A stretch of 17,828 nucleotides of DNA from Octopus sinensis (Eukaryota). The stretch covers positions 1-17,828 of the forward strand of contig NW_021824639.1 in NCBI RefSeq assembly GCF_006345805.1, given 5' to 3'. Under the pieces are notes generated by a model. The model ran no database searches, was not told the origin of the DNA, and was given only the letters and a program-made list of their open reading frames with translations. The translations under genes and the position numbers were made by a program. Positions within the stretch are counted from its first letter, which is position 1. The number at the start of each line of letters is the position of its first letter. Below, piece after piece: positions 1 to 16,700 of this stretch.

Positions 1-17
1 TATCTATCTATCTCTAT

Positions 18-3000
18 TGACGGATGTGATGTCGTTTCAGCTCCGAAGGTAATCATTTATTTTGACTATTTAAAACGTGTATATTGACAAACCAATCATC
101 CGCACACACACCACCCACCACCGAAACACATCAGATTTTTACCCATAACACAAGCAACAACACCACATACTGAAAACATTTTCCGAATGCGGTAGGCGGG
201 TATCAACGATACCTGTCGACGAAAAAACTATACAACACCCTCATCAAAAACGATACAAAAGGAGGAAAGAAGAAAAAAGTGAAAACTTTAAAATGAGTAA
301 GTGACCTCACTTCTTGCCTCTTGTCTCTTCTAATATAGTGTGTAAAACACAATTTCGTAAATGTCAAGTATGCTTAAATTAGGTTGTGTGAATGCGCGTG
401 GCTTGGCGTCGGCTTGGAAGCAAGGTTACCTTCTAACGACATACAGTCACTGGACGTGGATATAGTAGCTATCAGTGAAACACCAGAACTCAAGTAAGCC
501 GCGGCGCCGTCGAGTCAGGTTTGGCAATCAATTTGACATTTATTTTTCTCCTTGTCGCCGAACATGGGTGGTGGAGGTACTGCGGTGCTTTTTCGAAAGA
601 GTCTAAAAGTAAAAGTAAGAGCAATATTCCTAGACCCGGAGGGTAGGCTGGTTGTCTTGGACGTGGATGGCAGAATGGTGTGCATTCCGTCTGATGGCAG
701 TTATGCACCGTCCTTAACGGGTCGGGCGGATTTCTTCAGACGTCTAGAGGTTTTCCTGGGTACGTCTAGACCTTTACTGTTAGTAGGGGATTGAAAGCTA
801 CCTTGGACACGCATCTAGATTATGTGGGAAGGGATAGGAATAGAAGGGGGTGTAAGAGCCTCAAAGACCTGCTCAGACGTTTCCATTTGCTGACAGGTTC
901 CGACTCGACCATCCGAACGTGCCAACGTGGACTTGGACAAACCGCGTCGGATCGTCGAGATCTTATCTAGATAGAATTCTATGCAGGACAGCGGATAGGG
1001 ATAGTGTAGGATGTCCACAATTTAAAATAGTCAGCTACACAGATCACAAATTTGTTACGTGTACGCTCGACTTAGATAAAACACATAGGCAGGGTCCCGT
1101 TTACTGGAAACTGAACACGTCGCTGTTAGCGCGACAGGTTTACAGGAACCGGATTAGCGAGTTAATTAAGAGGCGCTGACGGGAGCGTCGTTAACAACCG
1201 CTGGTGGTACGCCCTGAAAATGGCAATAAAATCGGAATCAATTAGGTTTACCAAGGAATTAGCGATAGAACAAAAAAATAGAGTAGAGGGAGACTTAGTT
1301 AAGAAACTAGAAGAGGCACTTACCACTGGCAGCGCAACCAACGTGCTGGCTGCGAGGATGGCCCTCGACCAACACCTCAACGCCAAGCACGAAGGTTGCG
1401 CGTCGTCAGAGCTAAAATGCGTGCCTTAAGGAACGAAGGGATTGAGCTGCGCGAGAAGGCCCGGGTAGCGGAGGCGCAGCGTGGCAACAGATCAACCATT
1501 CGGTCTCTAATAGATCAACAGGGATGCAGTTTTACTCGAACCCGAAAGGATGTGTGAGGCCTTTCAACAGCACTTTGCTCGACTGTTTGGTGCGAGTGGT
1601 GGGTCGGAACGAGGGATGGATTTCAGTGCCTACCTGACCGACCTGCCGCGGCTCTCGGCAAGAGAAGCGGAGTGTTGTGAAAGTCCCATCACAGGCCGCT
1701 GACGTGTGGGATGCGATGGCGGGCTGTGGCGAGGGATAAGTCGCCTACGAGCTGTATTGTCGAATGCCAGACTTGTTTGGCGACCTCTTGGCATCAGTCT
1801 ACTGCAACTGGCAACAAAACGGGAGAATCCCCGGTTTCGTGAGCCGAGGTGCAGTGACGTTGCTGAAGAAAGACTCAAACAAGGGGAATTTTATAGATAA
1901 TTTCAGGCCCATCACTCTGCTCAACGCAGATTTGAAAATTTTGGCCAAGTAATAGCCGAGAGGTGGCGCTTGTCATTGGTAAACTGGTCGACAGGGCGCA
2001 AACATGCGCCGTGCCGGGCAGAACCATACATGACAACCTCCATCTGATGCGCTAACTTGTGGACAGGGTAGTTAAGGATCCTGGCATGGGTGGGGCGCTA
2101 ATAAATTTGGATCAGTCTAAAGCCTTCGATAGGTCGACCATCGGTACTTGGCGGCCGTCCTCAGGGCTGCTGGCTTCGGTCCCGTGTTCCGCGGTTGGAT
2201 CGCTGCCTTGTATAGCGGCATCCGATCGGTGATTCGGGTGAACGGTCACCTGTCTAAAAAACCGTTTGACATCACGCGTTCGGTCCGTCAGGGGTGTCCC
2301 CTGTCGGCGCTTCTGTATGTATTGACTCTCGAGCCGCTACTGCGGAAGCTGAACGGCGACACTGAGGGGCATCCCACGGGAACTGGGTTGCGGGACGAGC
2401 GTGTCGGCATATGCGGACGATGTCACCGTCATAGTGTCGAGCTACCAGCACATCGAGCTGGTCGCGAGACACTAAGAAAATATGAAACGGTGACGGGAGC
2501 AAAGATTAACCCGGAAAAGTCAGTGGGTTTGCTACTCGGCACCTGGAGAAGCAAGCCCATGCCGTCCGACTGCGGCTCAGTAGTGGGACGCTGGACGGAC
2601 GGACCGGTTAAATTGCTCGGGGTCTGGTTCAGTCCGGACCTCCAAATGGATAAGAACTGGACGAGATCACGAGTAGAGTGGTCGCTCTCAGCCAAACATG
2701 GGCCGAGAGAAAGCTGTCTCTAAAAGGCCGGGCGGAGGTGGCGAACGCGTACATCGCATCCGTCATCGATTACCGCCTGGACCGTTGTACCTTGTCCCGA
2801 CCCACCATCACCAAACTGGAACGCTTACTCTTCCGCTTCCTGTGGAAGGGTGGCGTTCCGATGGTGAGGAAGTCCATTTGCTGTCACAAATCCGTTGAAT
2901 GGAGGACTGGGCATGCCGTGTTGATGATGCGCAGGCATGCGTGGAGACTGCGACAATCTCTGGAAATTCATCGACGACGGTGAACAGGTGTGGGCGCGAC

Positions 3001-4078
3001 TTCCCGCAGCTCGTCTCACTGACCGAACTGCAAACGTGGATAATCAAAGAGCCCGAACTGGGCGATTGGCACCGAGAGTGTCGCCAAGCTCTACAGCAGC
3101 TCTGCCGACCGGGTCAAACTTGTGCAACTTCAAACGACTAAAGCGTTCTATAGAGGACTAGTGGAGGGGAGGTCCGACGACACACTCGGGGCAAACCTGG
3201 GCGTCGACGAGGAATTCCTAACCCGCCTGTTCAGGACAACGTTCGGGCCGGGGCCTATGGATAACTTCCAGAAATCCCTGGCTTGGCGTGCTATCGAGAC
3301 GCCTACCTGTTCGAGAGAAGAGCTACAGACACGGTTCGAAAACCATCACCGGACCGCCCCTGCCCGAGATGCGGTCAGAGCGACGAAACCGTTCTGCACG
3401 CACTCGTGCAGTGTCCATATTTCAGAGCTGTGGTCCTTCGTCGAACAGCTGTTGTCACGTGTAGGTCAGGCTCTCGCCTATCGGCCGAGTCTATCTTGAA
3501 TATTGTTCCACCACCTTCCTTTAAACGGGAAGGGAAAACGGTTTTCATTACGCTGATGGCTATGGCGAAAGAATGTGTGTGGAGGACGCGTTTGAAAGGA
3601 CTGCAAACAAACTCCTTCCTCTCTGGTCAGTCTCTCGTCAACTTTTTCAAGTACCACTTGAAAAGGAGGATGAGAATAGAGAGGAAGGCTTTGTCGAACG
3701 AATGTTTTAATAATAAAAGTGGGTAAAAGTGGCAAAAATGGTCAGTATGAAGACGACACTATTTTAAGCATAAATCTGTAACCAAAAGAGACAACGAGAA
3801 GTAAGGCGACTTACTCATGTGTTCTTTTTCGAATTGCCTGAGGTGAGCTTGGTCTTTTTTGTAGGTTTTCTTTCCAAGACTACACCTAAACTGTGAACCT
3901 TATATATATATATATATATTGCTTTTTTATACACCACACCCCCCCAGTACATCCCTATTGATCAAAGGTTTTTTTTTTTTTTCTTGCCCCACCCATCCCA
4001 CCTCGAAAAGAAAAAATTCTACATTGTATTTCGTCCATTTTTATCTGTGTTTAGCCCTGTGTGGCTACAATAAAAAGT
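18..4078 (+). mobile_element. Tx1-type (L1 clade) non-LTR retrotransposon, copy A; complete but broken ORF2 plus 3' UTR
   Basis: APE endonuclease, RT and C-terminal CCHC motifs in order (next feature). 3' UTR 3781-4078 with AATAAA at 4069-4074, followed directly by TATC repeat; TATC repeat also at 1-16. The 5' boundary is approximate; 18-296 may be a remnant ORF1 tail. Confidence 0.9.
361..3780 (+). pseudogene. Frameshifted ORF2: APE endonuclease - reverse transcriptase - CCHC zinc motif
   Basis: MSSMLKLGCVNARGL from 361; DIVAISET; LLLVGD*; TWTNRVGSSRSYLDRIL; YTDH; WKLNTSLL; NFRPITLLNADLKILAK; LDQSKAFDR; SVRQGCPLS; YADD at 2410-2421; LSLKGRAEVAN; CPRCGQSDETVLHALVQC from 3361. The ancestral stop is probably TAA 3778-3780, by alignment to copy B. 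Confidence 0.92.
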
Positions 4079-4105
4079 TATCTATCTGTCTGTCTGTCTG
4101 TCTGT

Positions 4106-4144
<39 letters not shown>
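4079..4144 (+). repeat. Compound tetranucleotide microsatellite (TATC)-(TGTC)n-(TGCC)n between Tx1 copies A and B
   Basis: Read directly from the sequence. Confidence 0.95.
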
Positions 4145-5655
4145 AGAAGAACTATAACGAGTAGGGTGGTCACTCTCACCCGGCAATGGGCCGAGAGGAA
4201 ACTGTCCCTAAAAGGTCGGGCGGAGGTGGCGAACACGTACATCGTGTCCGTCATCTACTACCGCCTGACCGTCGTACCTTGTCCCGACCCTACCATCACC
4301 AAACTACAACGCATTCTCTTTCTCTTCTTGTGGAAAGGATGCGTCCCGATGGTCAGGCGATCCATTTGCTGTCAACACCCGTTAAAAGGAGGGCTGGGCA
4401 TGCCGTGGTTGATGATGCGCAGACACGCGCTGAGACTGCGACATCTCTGGCTCTATGTAGACGACGGTGAACAGGTGTGGTCGCCGTTTGTGAGGCACGC
4501 TTTCCCGCAGCTCGTCTCCATGACCGAACTGCAGTCGTGGATCAAAAAGAGGCCGAAGAAGGGCGAATGGCACCGCGAGTGTCGCGTTGCTCTCAAGCAA
4601 CTCTGCCGTCCTGGGTCGACCTTGAGTGACTTCAACACAACCAAAGCATTCTTTAGGGGTTTAGTGGAGGGGAGGTACGACGACGAGCTCGGGGCGAACC
4701 TGGACGTCGACGAGGAGTACCTGACCCGCCGTTCGGACGACTTCGGGCCAGGGCCCATGGACAACTTCCAGAGATCCCTGGCCTTGCAGTGCTACCGAGA
4801 AGCGCTACCCGTTCGGGATAAGCTTTACAGACAGGCTCGAGAAACACGGGGCCGACCTGCCCGAGATGCGGTCAGAGCGACGAAACGTTCTGCACGCACT
4901 CGTGCAGTGTCCAACAATTTCCGACCTGTGGGCTTGTGTCGAACAACTGCTGTCACGTGTGGGACGAGTCGGTTTATCAGCTGAGTCTATCGTTAATAAT
5001 GTCACGCCTCCCTCCTTCAAACGGGAAGGAAGAGCTATTTTCATCATCCTTGTGGCTATGGCGAAAGAATGTATCTGGTGGACGCCTCTGAAAGGATTGG
5101 AGACAAACACTTTCCTCTGGTCAATCTCTCATCAACTTCCTCAAGTACCACTTGAAAAGGAAAGTGAGAGTAGAGAGGCAAGTTTTGTCTAGCGAATGTT
5201 TTAAAAAAAAAGATGGGTGAATGTAGCAAGAATGGCACGTATGAATGACGAAGCCACCTTGAGCATGATCCTATGAACCCAGAAATTGAAAACAGAGAGT
5301 TGCTTATTTGCAAAAAAAAAAGAAAAAAAGAAATATAACATGTGACTCCATTGACCGAGGTTACCGTGGTCTTTTCCGTTGGCTTTTCTTTCCACGGGTA
5401 AACCTCACCTGTCCTCCCCTTTACACTTCATATTGACATTTCTGTGATAACGATCCCTATTGATCAATTTTTTTTTTTCCTCTCCCCCTTTTTTTTAACC
5501 CCCCTTTTTTTGTCCTCTTTCTCTCCTTTTACGATCCTTTTGATCGAAACTCCCCCTTCCTTTTTTTATTTATTTTTTTTAAACCTTCAAAAGAAAAGCT
5601 CTACCTTGTAATTTGTTCTATCTGTGTGCAGCCCTGTGTGGCTAATAAAGAAACA
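4145..5655 (+). mobile_element. Tx1-type LINE copy B, 5'-truncated, different subfamily from A
   Basis: Starts at sequence homologous to ~2650 of copy A (SRVVTLTRQWAERKLSLKGRAEVAN...GGLGMP...); CCHC region near 4858-4912; stop TGA 5274-5276; AATAAA 5644-5649, then TATC repeats. Confidence 0.92.
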
Positions 5656-5700
5656 TATCTATCTACCTATCTATCTATAATCTTTCTGTCTATCTGTCTG
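5656..5700 (+). repeat. Imperfect (TATC)/(TGTC) microsatellite between copies B and C
   Basis: Read directly from the sequence. Confidence 0.9.
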
Positions 5701-6228
5701 TCAATCTCTCATCAACTTCTTCAAGTACCACTTGAAAAGGAAAGTGAGAGTAGAGAGGCAAGTTTTGTCTAGCGAATGTTTTAAAAAAAGATGGGTGAAT
5801 GTAGCAAGAATGGCACGTATGAATGACGAAGCCACCTTGAGCATGATCCTATGAACTCAGAAATTGAAAACAGAGAGTTGCTTATTCGCAAAAAAAAAAA
5901 AAAGAAATATAACATGTGACTCCATTGACCGAGGTTACCGTGGTCTTTTCCGTAGGCTTTTCTTTCCACGGGTAAACCTCACCTGTTCTCCCCTTTACAC
6001 TTCATATTGACATTTCTGTGATAACGATCCGTATTGATAAAAAAAATTTTTTTTTCCTCTCCCCCTTTTTTTTAACCCCCCTTTTTTTGTCCTCTTTCTC
6101 TCCTTTTACGATCCCTTTTGATCGAAACTCCCCCTTCCTTTTCTTTTTTTTTTAAACCTTCAAAAGAAAAGCTCTACCTTGTAATTTGTTCTATCTGTGT
6201 GCAGCCCTGTGTGGCTAATAAAGAAACA
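5701..6228 (+). mobile_element. Tx1-type LINE copy C, 3'-terminal ~530 bp, near-identical to 5121-5655
   Basis: Colinear with the end of copy B, differing by a handful of substitutions and homopolymer lengths; AATAAA 6217-6222, then TATC repeats. Confidence 0.93.
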
Positions 6229-6256
6229 TATATCTATCTATCTATCTATCTATCTA

Positions 6257-6346
<90 letters not shown>
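6229..6346 (+). repeat. Compound microsatellite (TATC)n-(TC)n-(TA)n
   Basis: Read directly from the sequence. Confidence 0.95.
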
Positions 6347-6347
<1 letters not shown>

Positions 6348-6437
6348 TGGAGATGAATGGATTTATGGTTAGATCGTATGTGATCTTCTTCTAGCATATG
6401 GCTGTCCACATAGTGGTTTTTAGCCCTAAATATACAC

Positions 6438-6562: not shown

Positions 6563-8451
6563 ATCACCATCATCATCATCATCATCATCACCATCATTAT
6601 CATCATTTAACATCCACTCACCATACTGGCATGTGTCGGCTGGTTTGACAGGAGATTATGAGTCGGTGAGCTGCCCCACGTTCCTGTCTGATTTGGCATG
6701 GTTTCTACAGCTCGATGTCCTTCCTAATGCTAACCACCCCAGGTGTGTAACTGGTGCTTTCAGATGCCACCGGCACGGGTGCCACTTGCATGACACCGAC
6801 AATGGCCACGACTACGATTCACGGATGGTTGCCATTTAAATGGCACCACCAACGACGATAATTCCCAGGTGCCAATTTACATGGCACCATCGGTGACCAC
6901 AACTATGATACCCAGGTGTCATTGACATGGCACCGGAAGCGAACAGCCACGGCTATGATGCACGGCTGCCACTTATAGGACACTGGCACGACCACATCCT
7001 TATCGTCACTTGGCCTGACATGTCCTCTCCCGCAGAGAATATCACCAGGGCTCTCGGTCACTTGTCATCTCCTCTATGATGTCCAACGGTTGGAGATCAT
7101 TCTTCATCAACTCATCGAAAGTCTTCTTGGGTCTCCGTCTTCCAAAGGATCCTTCCACAGTTAGAGATCGGCACTTTTTGATACAGCTGCCATGTCCATA
7201 CACAGCGCAAGACCATACCAACGCAGACGTCTCTCTTGCACACCCTATTTGATGTCTTCAATGCTCAGCTTTTCTCTCAAGACTCCTATACTCTGTCGTA
7301 CATGCACACTGACATTTTACATCCAGCGAGGCCTACTGGCTTCATTTCTTTCAAGCCTATGGAAGTCCTCAGAGAGGTCACATCCCATGTTTCACTGACA
7401 TGTAACATAGTTGTTTACACACAGGCATCATAACGTCTGCCTTTCAATCTCAGGGAGACGCTCTTTGTTACCATTAGAGTTAAGATTACTCTGAACTTTG
7501 CACGTCTTAATCTTATTCTTGCAGCTACACTCAAGGAAGAACAAACCTCACTCCTGACTTGGCCAACTAGATAGCGGAAACTATCAACTCCCAGTAGCTT
7601 ACCTACCTGGCAATTGATGGACTCTATTTTCTCTACATTTGTGCTGTTTATTGTACTTGTGCACCTTCCACACAGAAAAACTATTATCCCCGTTAACCTT
7701 CCTCTGATATTGCTGCAACACTTATGTGTCCATACCTTACACTAGGCACATCTTATGAACTTCCTACCTACGCTTTTTCTACAGATCAAACAGTGCCATC
7801 TTCCTGAGGAGATTTGTGAATTGTCCGCTTTCCTACTTACTAAGATTGCTTTTTTTAGATGAGTTTAAGGCTCGTTGATTCTAGTCCTTACTGATATACC
7901 TAAAATTTACCTAGTTCTGAAAGTTATTCGGCTATGATAACAAGGTCATCAGCATTGGGGATCTCCTAGAAGCGGTCATCTTAAATCCCTCTGTTATTGC
8001 CTGGAGGACTCTGATAAACAGGAAGGCGCTGAGGACTAATCCATGATGAACCCCTACTTGTACCCTAATTGATTGCTACACACGATGCCAAACCTCACCT
8101 TACTGACAGCATCCCTGTACATGACTTGTAACGCTCTCACCAACCATTCGTCCATCCCTAGCTTTTGCAGTGACCAGCAAATAAGGGATCGAGGAATCCT
8201 GTCAAAGCCTTTCTCGTGTTTAACAAAGGCCCAGTACAAGGGTTTATCTTTGGCTTGGTACTTCTCCTGCAGCTGCCTTACCAGGAATATAGCATCAGAG
8301 GTGCTTCGCTCTGGCACAAAACCAAATTGCACTTCTTCTGGTCTAACACACGTCCTAATTATTTTGTCTGTGACCCTCTGAGTAATTTTCATTGCTTCAT
8401 CTAATAGTGTGATACCTCTGTAATTCTTTCCGTGCAAGGCATCATCCTCCC

Positions 8452-8455
<4 letters not shown>
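6563..8455 (-). mobile_element. RTE-clade LINE, 5'-truncated and decayed, with (ATG)n tail
   Basis: Minus strand gives NYRGITLLD, QFGFVPERSTSDAIFLVRQLQEKY, GFDRIPR, ADDLVIIAE (~7925-7958), DSFRYL (~7567-7584), MLHVSETW and RRLRWYG. (CAT)n at 6563-6606 is the tail. The 3' UTR motifs recur at 10857+ and 17417+. Confidence 0.9.

Positions 8456-8483
<28 letters not shown>
8456..8483. repeat. (GT)n microsatellite
   Basis: Read directly from the sequence. Confidence 0.95.
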
Positions 8484-8486
<3 letters not shown>

Positions 8487-8629
8487 TTGTAATTATTTGG
8501 AATTTGTGTATACATTTAGAAGTATGCCGCTTAAAGATCTTTCGCTGATTCGGTTACCTCATGTCATCCACAGTTGAGCTATAAGTGACACTGGATCTAC
8601 CTCATGTATTCTGCAGTGTTCGTTCAGTT

Positions 8630-9501: not shown

Positions 9502-9714
9502 GATTCGGTGAATTTAGAAATTGTGAACAAAAAATATAGGACACCATTGCTTGAAGCTGTTTCGAACGGTCACCTCGGAATAATGCAGCGGCTGATAGCC
9601 AGGGGCGCGAATGTAAATGTTGTCGAACATGGAGGAAATAATTGCCTGCATCTGGCGTTAAAAAGAGAAAACAACTTTCATTCTGAGGTGGAGCACATGA
9701 CCATGTTAGATCAG
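9502..9714 (+). CDS. Internal exon (phase 0-0) with ankyrin repeats; ankyrin + RING (MIB-like) E3 ligase
   Basis: Pyrimidine tract plus AG at 9500-9501; GT at 9715; 213 nt: DSVNLEIVNKKYRTPLLEAVSNGHLGIMQRLIARGANVNVVEHGGNNCLHLAL...LDQ, matching the ankyrin consensus. Confidence 0.9.
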
Positions 9715-9738
9715 GTAGTTTTCACATTTTTGTGACTA

Positions 9739-13894: not shown

Positions 13895-14295
13895 GGCGCA
13901 GGAGTGGCTGTGTGGTAAGAAGCTTGTTTACCAACCACATGGTTCCGGGTTCAGTCCCACTGTGTGGCACCTTGGGCAAGTGTCTTCTACTATAGCCGAC
14001 CAAAGCCTTGTGAGTGGATTTGGTAGACGGAAACTGAAAGAAGCCCGTCGTATATATGTATATATATGTATGTGTGTGTATGTTTGTGTGTCTGTGTTTG
14101 TCCCCCTAGCATTGCTTGACAACCAATGCTGGTGTGTTTATGTCCCCGTCACTTAGCGGTTCGGCAAAAGAGACCGATAGAATAAGTACTGGGCTTACAA
14201 AGAATAAGTCCCGGGGTCGAGTTACTCGATTAAAGGCGGTGCACCAGCATGGCCGCAGTCAAAATGACTGAAACAAGTAAAAAAGAAAAAGAGAA

Positions 14296-14389: not shown

Positions 14390-15849
14390 TATGGGGGGAG
14401 GAATAAATATTCGTAATGTCAAAATTCTTTATTTAATTTCTAATGAACATAAATGGGATATACACATTATATATTTGCATACATATGCATAAACTAAGAA
14501 TATGCAAAAGAAACTAATAAATATAGTAACTAATGAATTTATATACAATTATAAATATTTAGGGGTGAAAAAAGTATTCGTCCAGAATAAATGTATGATT
14601 TTCTATGCCACAAAATACTGTTAGAATATTTTTTTACTAGAAATTTCTTGTTTATTCCATAATCTTATCAGTTTTCATTTTGATGTCAAAACACTAGCTT
14701 CTTCATTCAGCACTGAGACAACATAAAGTGATATCGCAATAATGGCGAAAAGTAAAGAACTCACAAATTCAGTGAAAAACTTATTATTGAACTGTAGAAA
14801 GTAGGTAAAAGTTACAGGAAAATATCAGAGACACTTTGTATTCCGCTTACTACCATATCTTCATTTATTCAAAGATATAAGGAATCGGGAACTGTTGAAA
14901 ACAGAATAAGATCCGGAGCACCACGCAAGATTTCCCCAAGATCTTTAAGAAAAATGAAGAGAAGAATCGGAAAAAAACGCAATAATCACCAGAAAGGAGT
15001 TTTCATAGAATGAACTGAAGTCACGCTCTCCTAGAAAAACTCCTCTGTTGACTAAAAGGCATAGAGATGCCCGTTTAAAATTTGTTATGAACATAAGATA
15101 AATCTGATACATTCTGGGAAAATGTTCTATGGACAGACGAGACAAAAATTGAATTGTTTGGACGAAATTCGCTTACCCATGTTTGGAGTAAAAACACAAT
15201 TCCTACCGTAAAGATTGGAGGTGTGGGGTGTTGTCTCTGCAAATGGTACTGGCAATTACATGTGATAGATGGTAGAATGAATGCAGAGATGTACCAAAAT
15301 ATTTTGAACAATAATTTATGGGACTCTGTTGAAAAGCTCCAGCTTTGTGAAGGGTGGGTTTTACAACAGGGTAACGGCCCTAAGCACACGGTGAAGTCTA
15401 CCAAATATGGATTGTCAATCACAATATAAAATTATTGTAATGGCCAAGCCTGTCACCTGACTTGAACCCCATTGAAGAGCCCCAACATGCATTACAGATT
15501 TGAAGATAATTTGTCAAGAAGAATAGGAAAAAATTCCTAAAGAAACATGCGAGTCATTGGTGAAGAACTACTAGAAGATACTGGTTGAAGTGGAACTGAA
15601 TAATGGTTATGCTACGAAGTATCAAATCAAAATTATCAGTTATTTATATTCTGTACGAATACTTTTTTCACTCCTAAATATTTATAATTGTATATAAATT
15701 CCTTAGTTACTATAATTTATTAGTTTCTTTTGCATATTCTTAGTTTATGCATATGTAAGTGAATATAGTATTGGTATATCCCATTTATGTTCATTAGAAA
15801 TTAAATAAATAAAGAATTTTGACATTACGAATATTTATTTCCCCCCGTG
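14390..15849 (+). mobile_element. Tc1-family DNA transposon with ~200 bp IR/DR-type TIRs, TA-flanked
   Basis: TIRs ~14390-14592 and ~15642-15849 (GGGGGG..AATAAATATTCGTAATGTCAAAATTCTTT and its reverse complement); TA on both sides; transposase remnant inside. Confidence 0.95.
14742..15624 (+). pseudogene. Decayed Tc1 transposase
   Basis: MAKSKEL; GKSYRKISETL (HTH); RSGAPRKISPR; RKTPLLTKRHRDARLKF; VLWTDETKIELFG (D1); LQQGNGPKHT (D2 mutated); WPSLSPDLNPIE (E); GYATKY. Contains frameshifts, stops and internal deletions. Confidence 0.92.
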
Positions 15850-16557: not shown

Positions 16558-16700
16558 ATGTGTGTTTTGTGAAGACGAAGTGGCCACAGAGACGTTCTTT
16601 CCATGTAAACATCTTTCGCTGTGTAAGAAATGCTGTCCCCCAAAGATACCTAAACAATGCCTCAAGTGTGGACAGAATATAACGAGCAAAAATAGTTTGG
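16558..16700 (+). CDS. Internal exon (phase 2-1) encoding a C3HC4 RING finger (MIB/IAP type)
   Basis: Acceptor TCTTTGTTCCTCAG; donor GTAAGA at 16701; CA|A gives Gln, then CVFCEDEVATETFFPCKHLSLCKKCCPPKIPKQCLKCGQNITSKNSL. Confidence 0.92.

Follow-up and report, generated by a model that had tools for sequence, protein, structure and literature searches.

The 3' UTR of avian and turtle R2 retrotransposons carries a pseudoknot, a hinge and a stem loop that are bound by protein and needed for insertion, and compensatory changes within it restore insertion (PMC11601368). The R2 knot includes three base triples (PMC12222951). In telomerase RNA, a U.A-U triplex within an H-type pseudoknot is needed for reverse transcriptase (RT) activity (PMC7583470). 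MALAT1 and MEN-beta RNAs have a blunt A-tract end made by RNase P, and PAN-type ENEs bind poly(A) (PMC7583470). ENEs of transposons are reported from LTR elements, hAT transposases and a fish retrovirus (PMC12501189, PMC13541005), and reviews list them from plants, fungi, slime mould and a fish retrovirus (PMC7583470, PMC13541005).

Among Tx1 families, Kibi and Koshi target the microsatellites (TC)n and (TTC)n, and Keno targets U2 (PMC4494074). Octopus repeat surveys describe L1-Tx1 elements as abundant and recently active, with no structure given in the excerpts available (PMC13282606, PMC8967140). A literature search found no triplex or pseudoknot for any Tx1 or L1-clade 3' UTR; most subscription papers, Tycowski 2016 and Repbase lay outside its scope. 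The LINE copies analyzed here come from a 17,828-nucleotide stretch of Octopus sinensis DNA (contig NW_021824639.1), called the window, and their 3' UTR had been predicted to hold a MALAT1/PAN-like ENE triple helix. We find a pseudoknot to be well supported and a triplex probable in two of three families, and we infer a function.

The LINE copies and their families

Positions 17 to 6231 of the window consist of three head-to-tail LINE copies amid (TATC)n-type repeats, each of them broken or truncated. The ORF2 of copy A, which encodes an endonuclease, an RT and a zinc finger, is frameshifted and stops at 3779-3781, and its ORF1 is mostly absent. As judged by eye against the related locus L087, copy A has an apparent true 5' end (window 17-370) and has lost nearly all of ORF1 before ORF2, possibly by internal deletion. 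Copies B and C are 90-97% alike and belong to one subfamily, so the window yields one comparison and not three.

Other features are present elsewhere in the window. The minus strand at 7000-8440 carries a piece of a different LINE, with an RT-like frame at 8054-8515. By eye, 9530-9715 and 16559-16700 are exon-like, with ankyrin repeats and a RING finger, which suggests that a host ubiquitin-ligase gene spans the right half of the window. A distinct tRNA-headed SINE copy was recognized by eye at 13895-14290, and a decayed Tc1/mariner-like DNA transposon with inverted repeats of about 170 bp and a transposase-like frame (15097-15429) occupies 14425-15812.

L087 is a natural intact relative. Its ORF1 has a CCHC knuckle (PF00098 at E 0.003, below the cut-off), and its ORF2 of 1145 aa comprises an APE endonuclease, an RT and a zf-RVT domain (PF03372, PF00078, PF13966). 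The nearest solved structure to this ORF2 is human L1 ORF2p; the element's protein is thus L1-like, not R2. The nearest named homologue of the LINE ORF2 is in Argonauta hians, at 65% identity. These domains and the targeting of repeats fit membership in the Tx1 group. In an RT tree of 26 rows, midpoint-rooted and built without a named Tx1 reference, the neighbors include Keno-like loci embedded in U2 snRNA genes. Three metagenome loci (L159, L160, L162) are Tx1-like elements of this Keno-like kind, in or adjoining U2 snRNA genes, and a descriptor scan of their UTRs found no knot. More broadly, 80 metagenome loci share 25-42% identity; the 14 with at least 140 nt past ORF2 were scanned, and no such knot was found.

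The octopus relatives fall into several groups. Subfamilies A, B, D, E and H have 3' ends that abut (TATC)n. Family F ends at (ATT)n, family G at (TC)n, and family J at another, non-microsatellite repeat that starts GGAAGCGACACCTAC. ORF2 identity to B is 82% for A, 86% for H, 75% for F, 62% for G and 58% for J; G and J are sisters with support of 100/100 in the 26-row tree. Near-intact ORF2 genes occur in F (L231-L290), G (L319-L350) and J (L494, L523-L552). The genome was queried with UTRs, tail patterns and the C-termini of outside homologues, keeping the best candidates, so rarer families may have been missed. A pattern for the core of the 3' UTR has 4,748 genome matches and its reversed control none, which reflects family size and not selection. 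A tract-plus-tail pattern has 6,943 matches, again with none for the reversed control. With the third stem pair altered, the pattern has 6 matches and the control 10, and nothing new was recovered.

Hairpin, long-range helix and predicted third strand

The original prediction had the positions and sequence of its stems right. Segments 3841-3887, 5357-5406 and 5931-5980 fold as hairpins with a U-rich loop of 21-22 nt, and the downstream partner AAAAGAAAA is present at 4006-4014, 5589-5597 and 6162-6170; this 9-mer also occurs at two unrelated places in the window. The stem, S1, starts 60-80 nt past the ORF2 stop. Three compensatory changes had been claimed for it. The G-C/U-A and U-A/G-C changes are subfamily-wide, whereas G-C/C-G is a private mutation of copy A: G3847 is found in 1 of 40 A-type copies, namely the one in the window, and the other 39 have C. 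In its 3' U tract, copy A also has four U's before CUUU, an arrangement shared by 2 of the 40 A-type copies, and the remaining 38 have five. In 16 hand-picked copies of the (TATC)n lineage, 4 of the 12 S1 pairs have changed on both sides, and the G-C pairs beside the U loop (GG/CC) are invariant (16/16) and are found in F and G as well. Isolated hairpins are not unusually stable (z from -0.97 to -1.8), and that of F, at +0.6, favors a different fold.

The U-rich loop is complementary to a purine tract that sits 40-70 nt before the element's end. The resulting helix, S2, was assessed in the same 16 hand-picked copies, in which 98.6% of cells are paired across its 13 pairs. Immediately past the A4 run, the pair is C-G in nine copies, U-A in four and U-G in three, and the U-G wobbles are intermediates that link C-G to U-A. 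Paired cells and covariation score exceed 500 of 500 shuffles, and the number of two-sided pairs is not above shuffles (79/500). All copies are related and come from one genome, so the cells of the alignment are not independent events. What the sequences establish is that S1 is conserved, that S2 covaries, and that the tract, nowhere terminal, keeps its place ahead of a common tail. The order S1-L1-S2-S1'-L3-S2', with this covariation, corresponds to an H-type pseudoknot topology (Table 1).

Table 1. Positions of the LINE copies and of their putative pseudoknot elements in the window
Feature	Position	Strand	Remarks
Copy A, Tx1-like LINE, subfamily A	17..4080	+	Element ends set by eye from flanking TATC repeats
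Copy A, stem S1, 5' arm	3841..3852	+	Includes private G3847
Copy A, loop L1 UCUUUUUU	3853..3860	+	Predicted third (Hoogsteen) strand; putative role
Copy A, GUA-GG linker and S2 5' strand	3861..3873	+	One U below subfamily norm
Copy A, stem S1, 3' arm	3874..3887	+
Copy A, purine tract (S2 3' strand) and UCUAC	4006..4022	+	UCUAC, possible S2 extension
Copy A, tail	4023..4080	+	UUGU hinge; terminal hairpin 4052-4067; AATAAA 4069-4074; target microsatellite next
Copy B, 5'-truncated LINE, subfamily B	4145..5658	+	ORF2 stop 5274-5276
Copy B, S1 hairpin	5357..5406	+	5' arm 5357-5369; 3' arm 5392-5406
Copy B, inside S1 hairpin		+	L1 5370-5377; linker 5378-5382; S2 5' strand 5383-5391
Copy B, loop L3	5407..5588	+	Variable pyrimidine-rich spacer with small GATC hairpins
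Copy B, purine tract AAAAGAAAAG and CUCUAC	5589..5604	+	S2 3' strand
Copy B, tail	5605..5658	+	Hinge; terminal hairpin 5629-5644; AATAAA 5644-5649
Copy C, short 5'-truncated LINE, subfamily B	5695..6231	+	ORF2 stop 5852-5854
Copy C, S1 hairpin	5931..5980	+	L1 5944-5951; S2 5' strand 5957-5965
Copy C, purine tract and tail	6162..6231	+	Tract 6162-6171; hinge; terminal hairpin 6202-6217; AATAAA 6217-6222; (TATC)n next

Between subfamilies, identity is 76-98% for core and tail and 30% for the spacer, whose length ranges from 79 to 222 nt in the 16 copies. Within the (TATC)n lineage, all that the variable spacer conserves is one or two small GATC-N5-GATC hairpins, seen in the window at 5452-5465, 5533-5544, 6026-6038 and 6110-6122.

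The idea of a pseudoknot predated sight of families F and G, which then showed a loop-to-tract helix. In F the helix is GGGUUUU:AAAACCC, within a loop of the form C-UUUU-(GUA/AUA/AUG/AU)-GGG-UUUUU. In G it is UGGGGUCR:UGACCCCA, an unrelated 8-bp GC-rich helix in the same place, and the loop is UUUG-UGGGGUCRA. Both tracts lie directly before a UUGU motif that also follows the tract of B. The tract is the loop's best duplex partner in the downstream UTR for 7 of 8 representatives. Its duplex energy is reached by none of 500 shuffles for B, E or H, by 8 for A and 16 for G, and for D by 2, but in a different register; the F duplex does not stand out from shuffles (184 and 155 of 500). Cross-family duplexes are often as strong as the cognate ones, G excepted.

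A pseudoknot without triples had been offered originally as an alternative, and it proves to be the conserved core: G retains the pairing with GC-rich sequence that is unable to form a U.A-U stack. We consider it very probable that the pseudoknot forms in LINE RNA. The descriptor of the knot was written after the positives had been seen; it matches 1-18% of shuffled UTRs and misses the single D copy, which has a private change. An Rfam search of window 3600-6400 returned nothing relevant up to an E of 10, and L087, L231, L319 and L394 gave none at gathering scores.

The segment L1, on the 5' side of the loop, reads U-C-UUUU-(C/U) and is parallel to the A-G-AAAA-(G/A) of the purine tract in five subfamilies (A, B, D, E and H). 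Third strands were parsed in 186 copies, 156 of which have a tract and a 9-nt strand. The letters at the variable layer read C.G-C in 59 of 61 young B copies, in all H copies (25 of 25) and in 10 of 14 from old B. Subfamily A has U.A-U there (46 of 47 copies), and E-type copies mostly have U.G-C (7 of 8). U.G-C is a triple tolerated in the MALAT1 triplex (PMC4836648). The extra C of the U tract that had been matched to an extra G beyond the A tract thus recurs as C-G in young B and gives way to U-A in A. Long-range pairing of the two tracts, with a plausible parallel U/C third strand that swaps U.A-U for C.G-C between A and B, is therefore retained from the original prediction. The predicted triples number six or seven in the (TATC)n lineage, four in F and about one canonical triple in G. 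Their covariation amounts to one layer and two or three events. In the (TATC)n and (ATT)n lineages, L1 probably forms U.A-U and C.G-C triples that stiffen a weak A-U helix.

A proposed template handle and alternative readings

A conserved tail of 40-70 nt follows the tract in all 203 inserted copies with a tract (196 by pattern, 7 by eye). This count covers copies anchored by an ORF or by the stem; in 22 others no tract was found, and 7 ran off the locus. The tail runs from the tract through a single-stranded UUGU..UUGUCC hinge, a small hairpin, AAUAAA and about 10 nt to the target repeat, so that tract, hinge, hairpin and AATAAA all lie within the last 70 nt.

These elements can be joined in one model. 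The hairpin loop would pair with the purine tract to give a long-range H-type pseudoknot, and the U/C-rich L1 would lie in the major groove of S2 as a triple helix, stiffening this A-U-rich helix; family G would substitute a GC-rich S2. Knot, hinge and terminal hairpin together would form a handle that ORF2p binds, starting reverse transcription at the microsatellite target. The precedents of the R2 knot and the telomerase triplex favor such a template handle. An R2-like pseudoknot-hinge-hairpin handle with a telomerase-like triplex is the best explanation that we can offer, with the odds of its being right about even. The narrower proposal that ORF2p binds knot and hinge and positions the last ~10 nt on the nicked repeat is, by analogy with avian and turtle R2, slightly favored. 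Where the original prediction had the element protect or present its 3' end, presenting is the likelier. The strongest form, in which a LINE has a MALAT1-grade triplex of six or seven layers in a telomerase-like knot and its RT needs the triplex to seat the 3' end on the nicked microsatellite, is tentative and falls short of an even chance. Family J, the sister of G, has neither knot nor tail, yet it is young and active-looking, which counts against the handle.

The main rival is a role in RNA stability or translation. According to this reading, the pseudoknot and triplex act on the LINE mRNA, slowing 3'-to-5' decay or aiding translation and export by a folding of the UTR that brings the 3' end near the ORF2 stop codon, and ORF2p reads no more than the terminal 45-60 nt. 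We rate it as possible but doubtful. It draws on an abundant tRNA-headed SINE, which resembles the LINE tails in its last 43-57 nt alone, downstream of the tract, and is without S1 and the U loop. The match is equaled by none of 300 shuffles for 6 of 11 LINE representatives; for the others the counts are A 1, old F 1, G 13, F 17 and J 212. A tail without a knot can thus be copied, and a SINE that shares nothing but the tail is classically a sign that the RT site is confined to the tail, which counts against the handle. The SINE also has its own local hairpin just before the hinge and shows no microsatellite targeting; a search for its partner LINE yielded nothing but SINE copies or fragments among the 30 of 120 matches inspected. 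These points weigh against the rival. A partnership of this SINE with Tx1 is possible.

SINE copies were noted at L394, L340, L066, L443 and L460 and in many flanks, some with target-site duplications. We take the SINE body to resemble a Nin/Deu domain.

The closeness of S1 to the stop codon also suits a role in the mRNA, as does a C/G-interrupted U loop together with an A tract encoded in the genome, a combination that is the MALAT1 signature. The MALAT1 triplex stabilizes RNA and boosts translation (PMC7583470), and an ENE raises both the RNA level and the mobility of Evade (PMC12501189). However, the tract is always internal, so that an RNA whose decay stopped there would lack its template end, and in G the knot persists with no U.A-U stack. 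The 5' truncation points, scored by eye in 97 of the first 100 tract-plus-tail matches, do not pile up at the knot: the spacer holds about 23 of the 97, and the next ~200 nt about 16 of the other 74. They point neither to RT stalling nor to an exonuclease-resistant short RNA.

A second alternative is a simple pseudoknot or kissing helix that lacks ordered triples, in which L1 is a pyrimidine linker or a protein-binding loop. We think this unlikely. Family G agrees with it, because S1 and S2 are kept there with an L1 of UUUG and a GC-rich S2. Third-strand matching breaks at one layer in both D, whose few copies have a shorter L1 and a mismatched letter at the variable layer, and F, in which the L1 C is kept though no G-C pair lies opposite; and U's in L1 come cheaply because the whole UTR is U-rich. 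Yet L1 runs exactly parallel to the purine strand in the five subfamilies, and from A to B its letter changes together with the pair. In F, four L1 U's with no Watson-Crick role are kept opposite four A-U pairs, in old and young copies alike.

A classical ENE would instead consist of a U-rich loop closed by a 2-bp GNA-triloop hairpin and would clamp a processed A-tract end or poly(A). This reading, closest to the original prediction, is very unlikely. The two pairs of its upper hairpin (CC-GUA-GG) are possible in every cell of the (TATC)n lineage, and a GUA-to-GCA variant, seen in no fewer than 16 of 61 young B copies and uncompensated downstream wherever copies were readable (12 of 12), is easier to reconcile with a GNA triloop than with an extended S2. 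Against this, the pairs vary on one side only (C-G or U-G), never appear in a minimum-energy fold and have no counterpart in F or G, where the linker G's pair downstream instead. The tiny upper hairpin is thus not a defining feature. Nor is GUAG:CUAC, the other possible apex, defining in the (TATC)n lineage. As a required extension of S2 it was rejected, since all 12 readable GCAG copies (14 fetched) retain CUAC; it fits most copies of the S2 set (98.6% paired in 16 copies) and is a possible, though optional, extension. An alternative local UAC/GUA hairpin after the tract is 83% paired, with three apparent double changes left uncounted because they could be post-insertion mutations. Also rejected was a stem that would enclose the tract (GGAC/GUCC in F, CGAAA/UUUCG in A), as it is not kept in D or in the oldest F copy.

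The 3' end itself argues further against a classical ENE. Conservation of AATAAA means that the RNA may have a poly(A) tail, but no poly(A) of 10 or more follows the tract in the 203 copies, and duplexes of the loop with A20 have energies of -2.6 to +1.4 kcal/mol, compared with -8.7 to -17.2 for the tract. Insertions report only RNAs that were copied, and processed RNAs that never retrotransposed would be invisible among them. ARAGORN found no tRNA-like gene in 7 loci, a search that could miss a degenerate mimic. With its tract internal, poly(A) binding weak and no Rfam match, the element falls outside both the MALAT1/MEN-beta class and the PAN-type ENEs; as judged from its sequence, it is no ENE or MALAT1 end cap.

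Chance complementarity of U-rich and A-rich runs inherited from one ancestor, which the low-complexity UTR, the readiness of the descriptor to match shuffled UTRs and the shuffle-like F duplex might suggest, is extremely improbable and already largely refuted by same-position pairing through different S2 sequences in three families, by U-G wobbles that bridge C-G and U-A, and by a spacer that diverged while the core held.

Significance and comparison with described RNAs

RNA choice in the L1 clade is known mainly from mammalian L1, which reads poly(A). If correct, a triplex-stiffened handle in a repeat-targeting Tx1 element would be a second model of template selection beside R2, and LINEs would be added to the RNA classes with predicted major-groove triplexes. 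If the RT needs the triplex, the element would be a retrotransposon counterpart of the telomerase triplex, with isosteric swaps recorded among thousands of copies. If the role is one of stability, an internal, non-terminal triplex would act on the mRNA of an animal transposon; and if there are no triples, what is left is a well-supported but more ordinary structured LINE tail. Intact natural copies of ORF2 exist, so the question is directly testable. Subfamilies and families A, B, E, H, F and G with the knot, and J without it, form a natural series suited to asking what base triples do, and F, G and J, on different repeats, form another for the target specificity of the endonuclease.

The element resembles Kibi, Koshi and Keno in its ORF2 with APE, RT and zinc finger, its CCHC ORF1 and its insertion into simple repeats (PMC4494074). 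It differs in its targets, which are (TATC)n, (ATT)n and (TC)n, and the available text of PMC4494074 gives no 3' UTR structure for Tx1. With stringent-type LINE 3' tails it shares a terminal hairpin and a tail common to a tRNA-headed SINE (PMC3747384); the upstream long-range knot and the predicted triplex are extra.

KSHV PAN and the transposon ENEs, including that of Arabidopsis Evade, likewise have a U-rich loop, and the latter are found in transposon 3' UTRs shortly past the ORF (PMC12501189). They clamp the poly(A) tail, whereas the partner here is an internal tract and the host a LINE. The U tracts of MALAT1 and MEN-beta are interrupted by C and matched by G in a genomic A tract, as in A, B, D, E and H. 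Closing G-C pairs are shared as well, and so are spare 5' A's with the potential for A-minor contacts. In contrast to those RNAs, there is no long upper stem, the tract is internal and followed by a 40-70 nt tail, and no tRNA-like RNase P site was found.

Telomerase RNA is similar in that it has an H-type knot whose U-rich loop 1 occupies the major groove of stem 2, that a single C.G-C joins the U.A-U triples, as in K. lactis, and that an RT uses the RNA (PMC7583470). It differs in being a separate non-coding RNA with an internal template and two to five U.A-U triples; the likeness is one of architecture, and no homology is claimed.

The endonuclease of R2 is restriction-like and its knot compact, lying within the last 65 nt, whereas the present element is an APE-type member of the Tx1/L1 clade with a long-range knot, whose S1 lies about 150-300 nt upstream, and a spacer of variable length. 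R2 has three triples, compared with up to six or seven predicted pyrimidine-motif triples here, where the handle and its contact with protein are putative. A-clade R2 offers a close likeness: it too is a non-LTR element, with a knot, a single-stranded hinge and a terminal hairpin before the end of the template (PMC11601368). Base triples in the knot, predicted in the octopus element, and an architecture that holds while the sequence diverges are likewise common to both (PMC11601368, PMC12222951).
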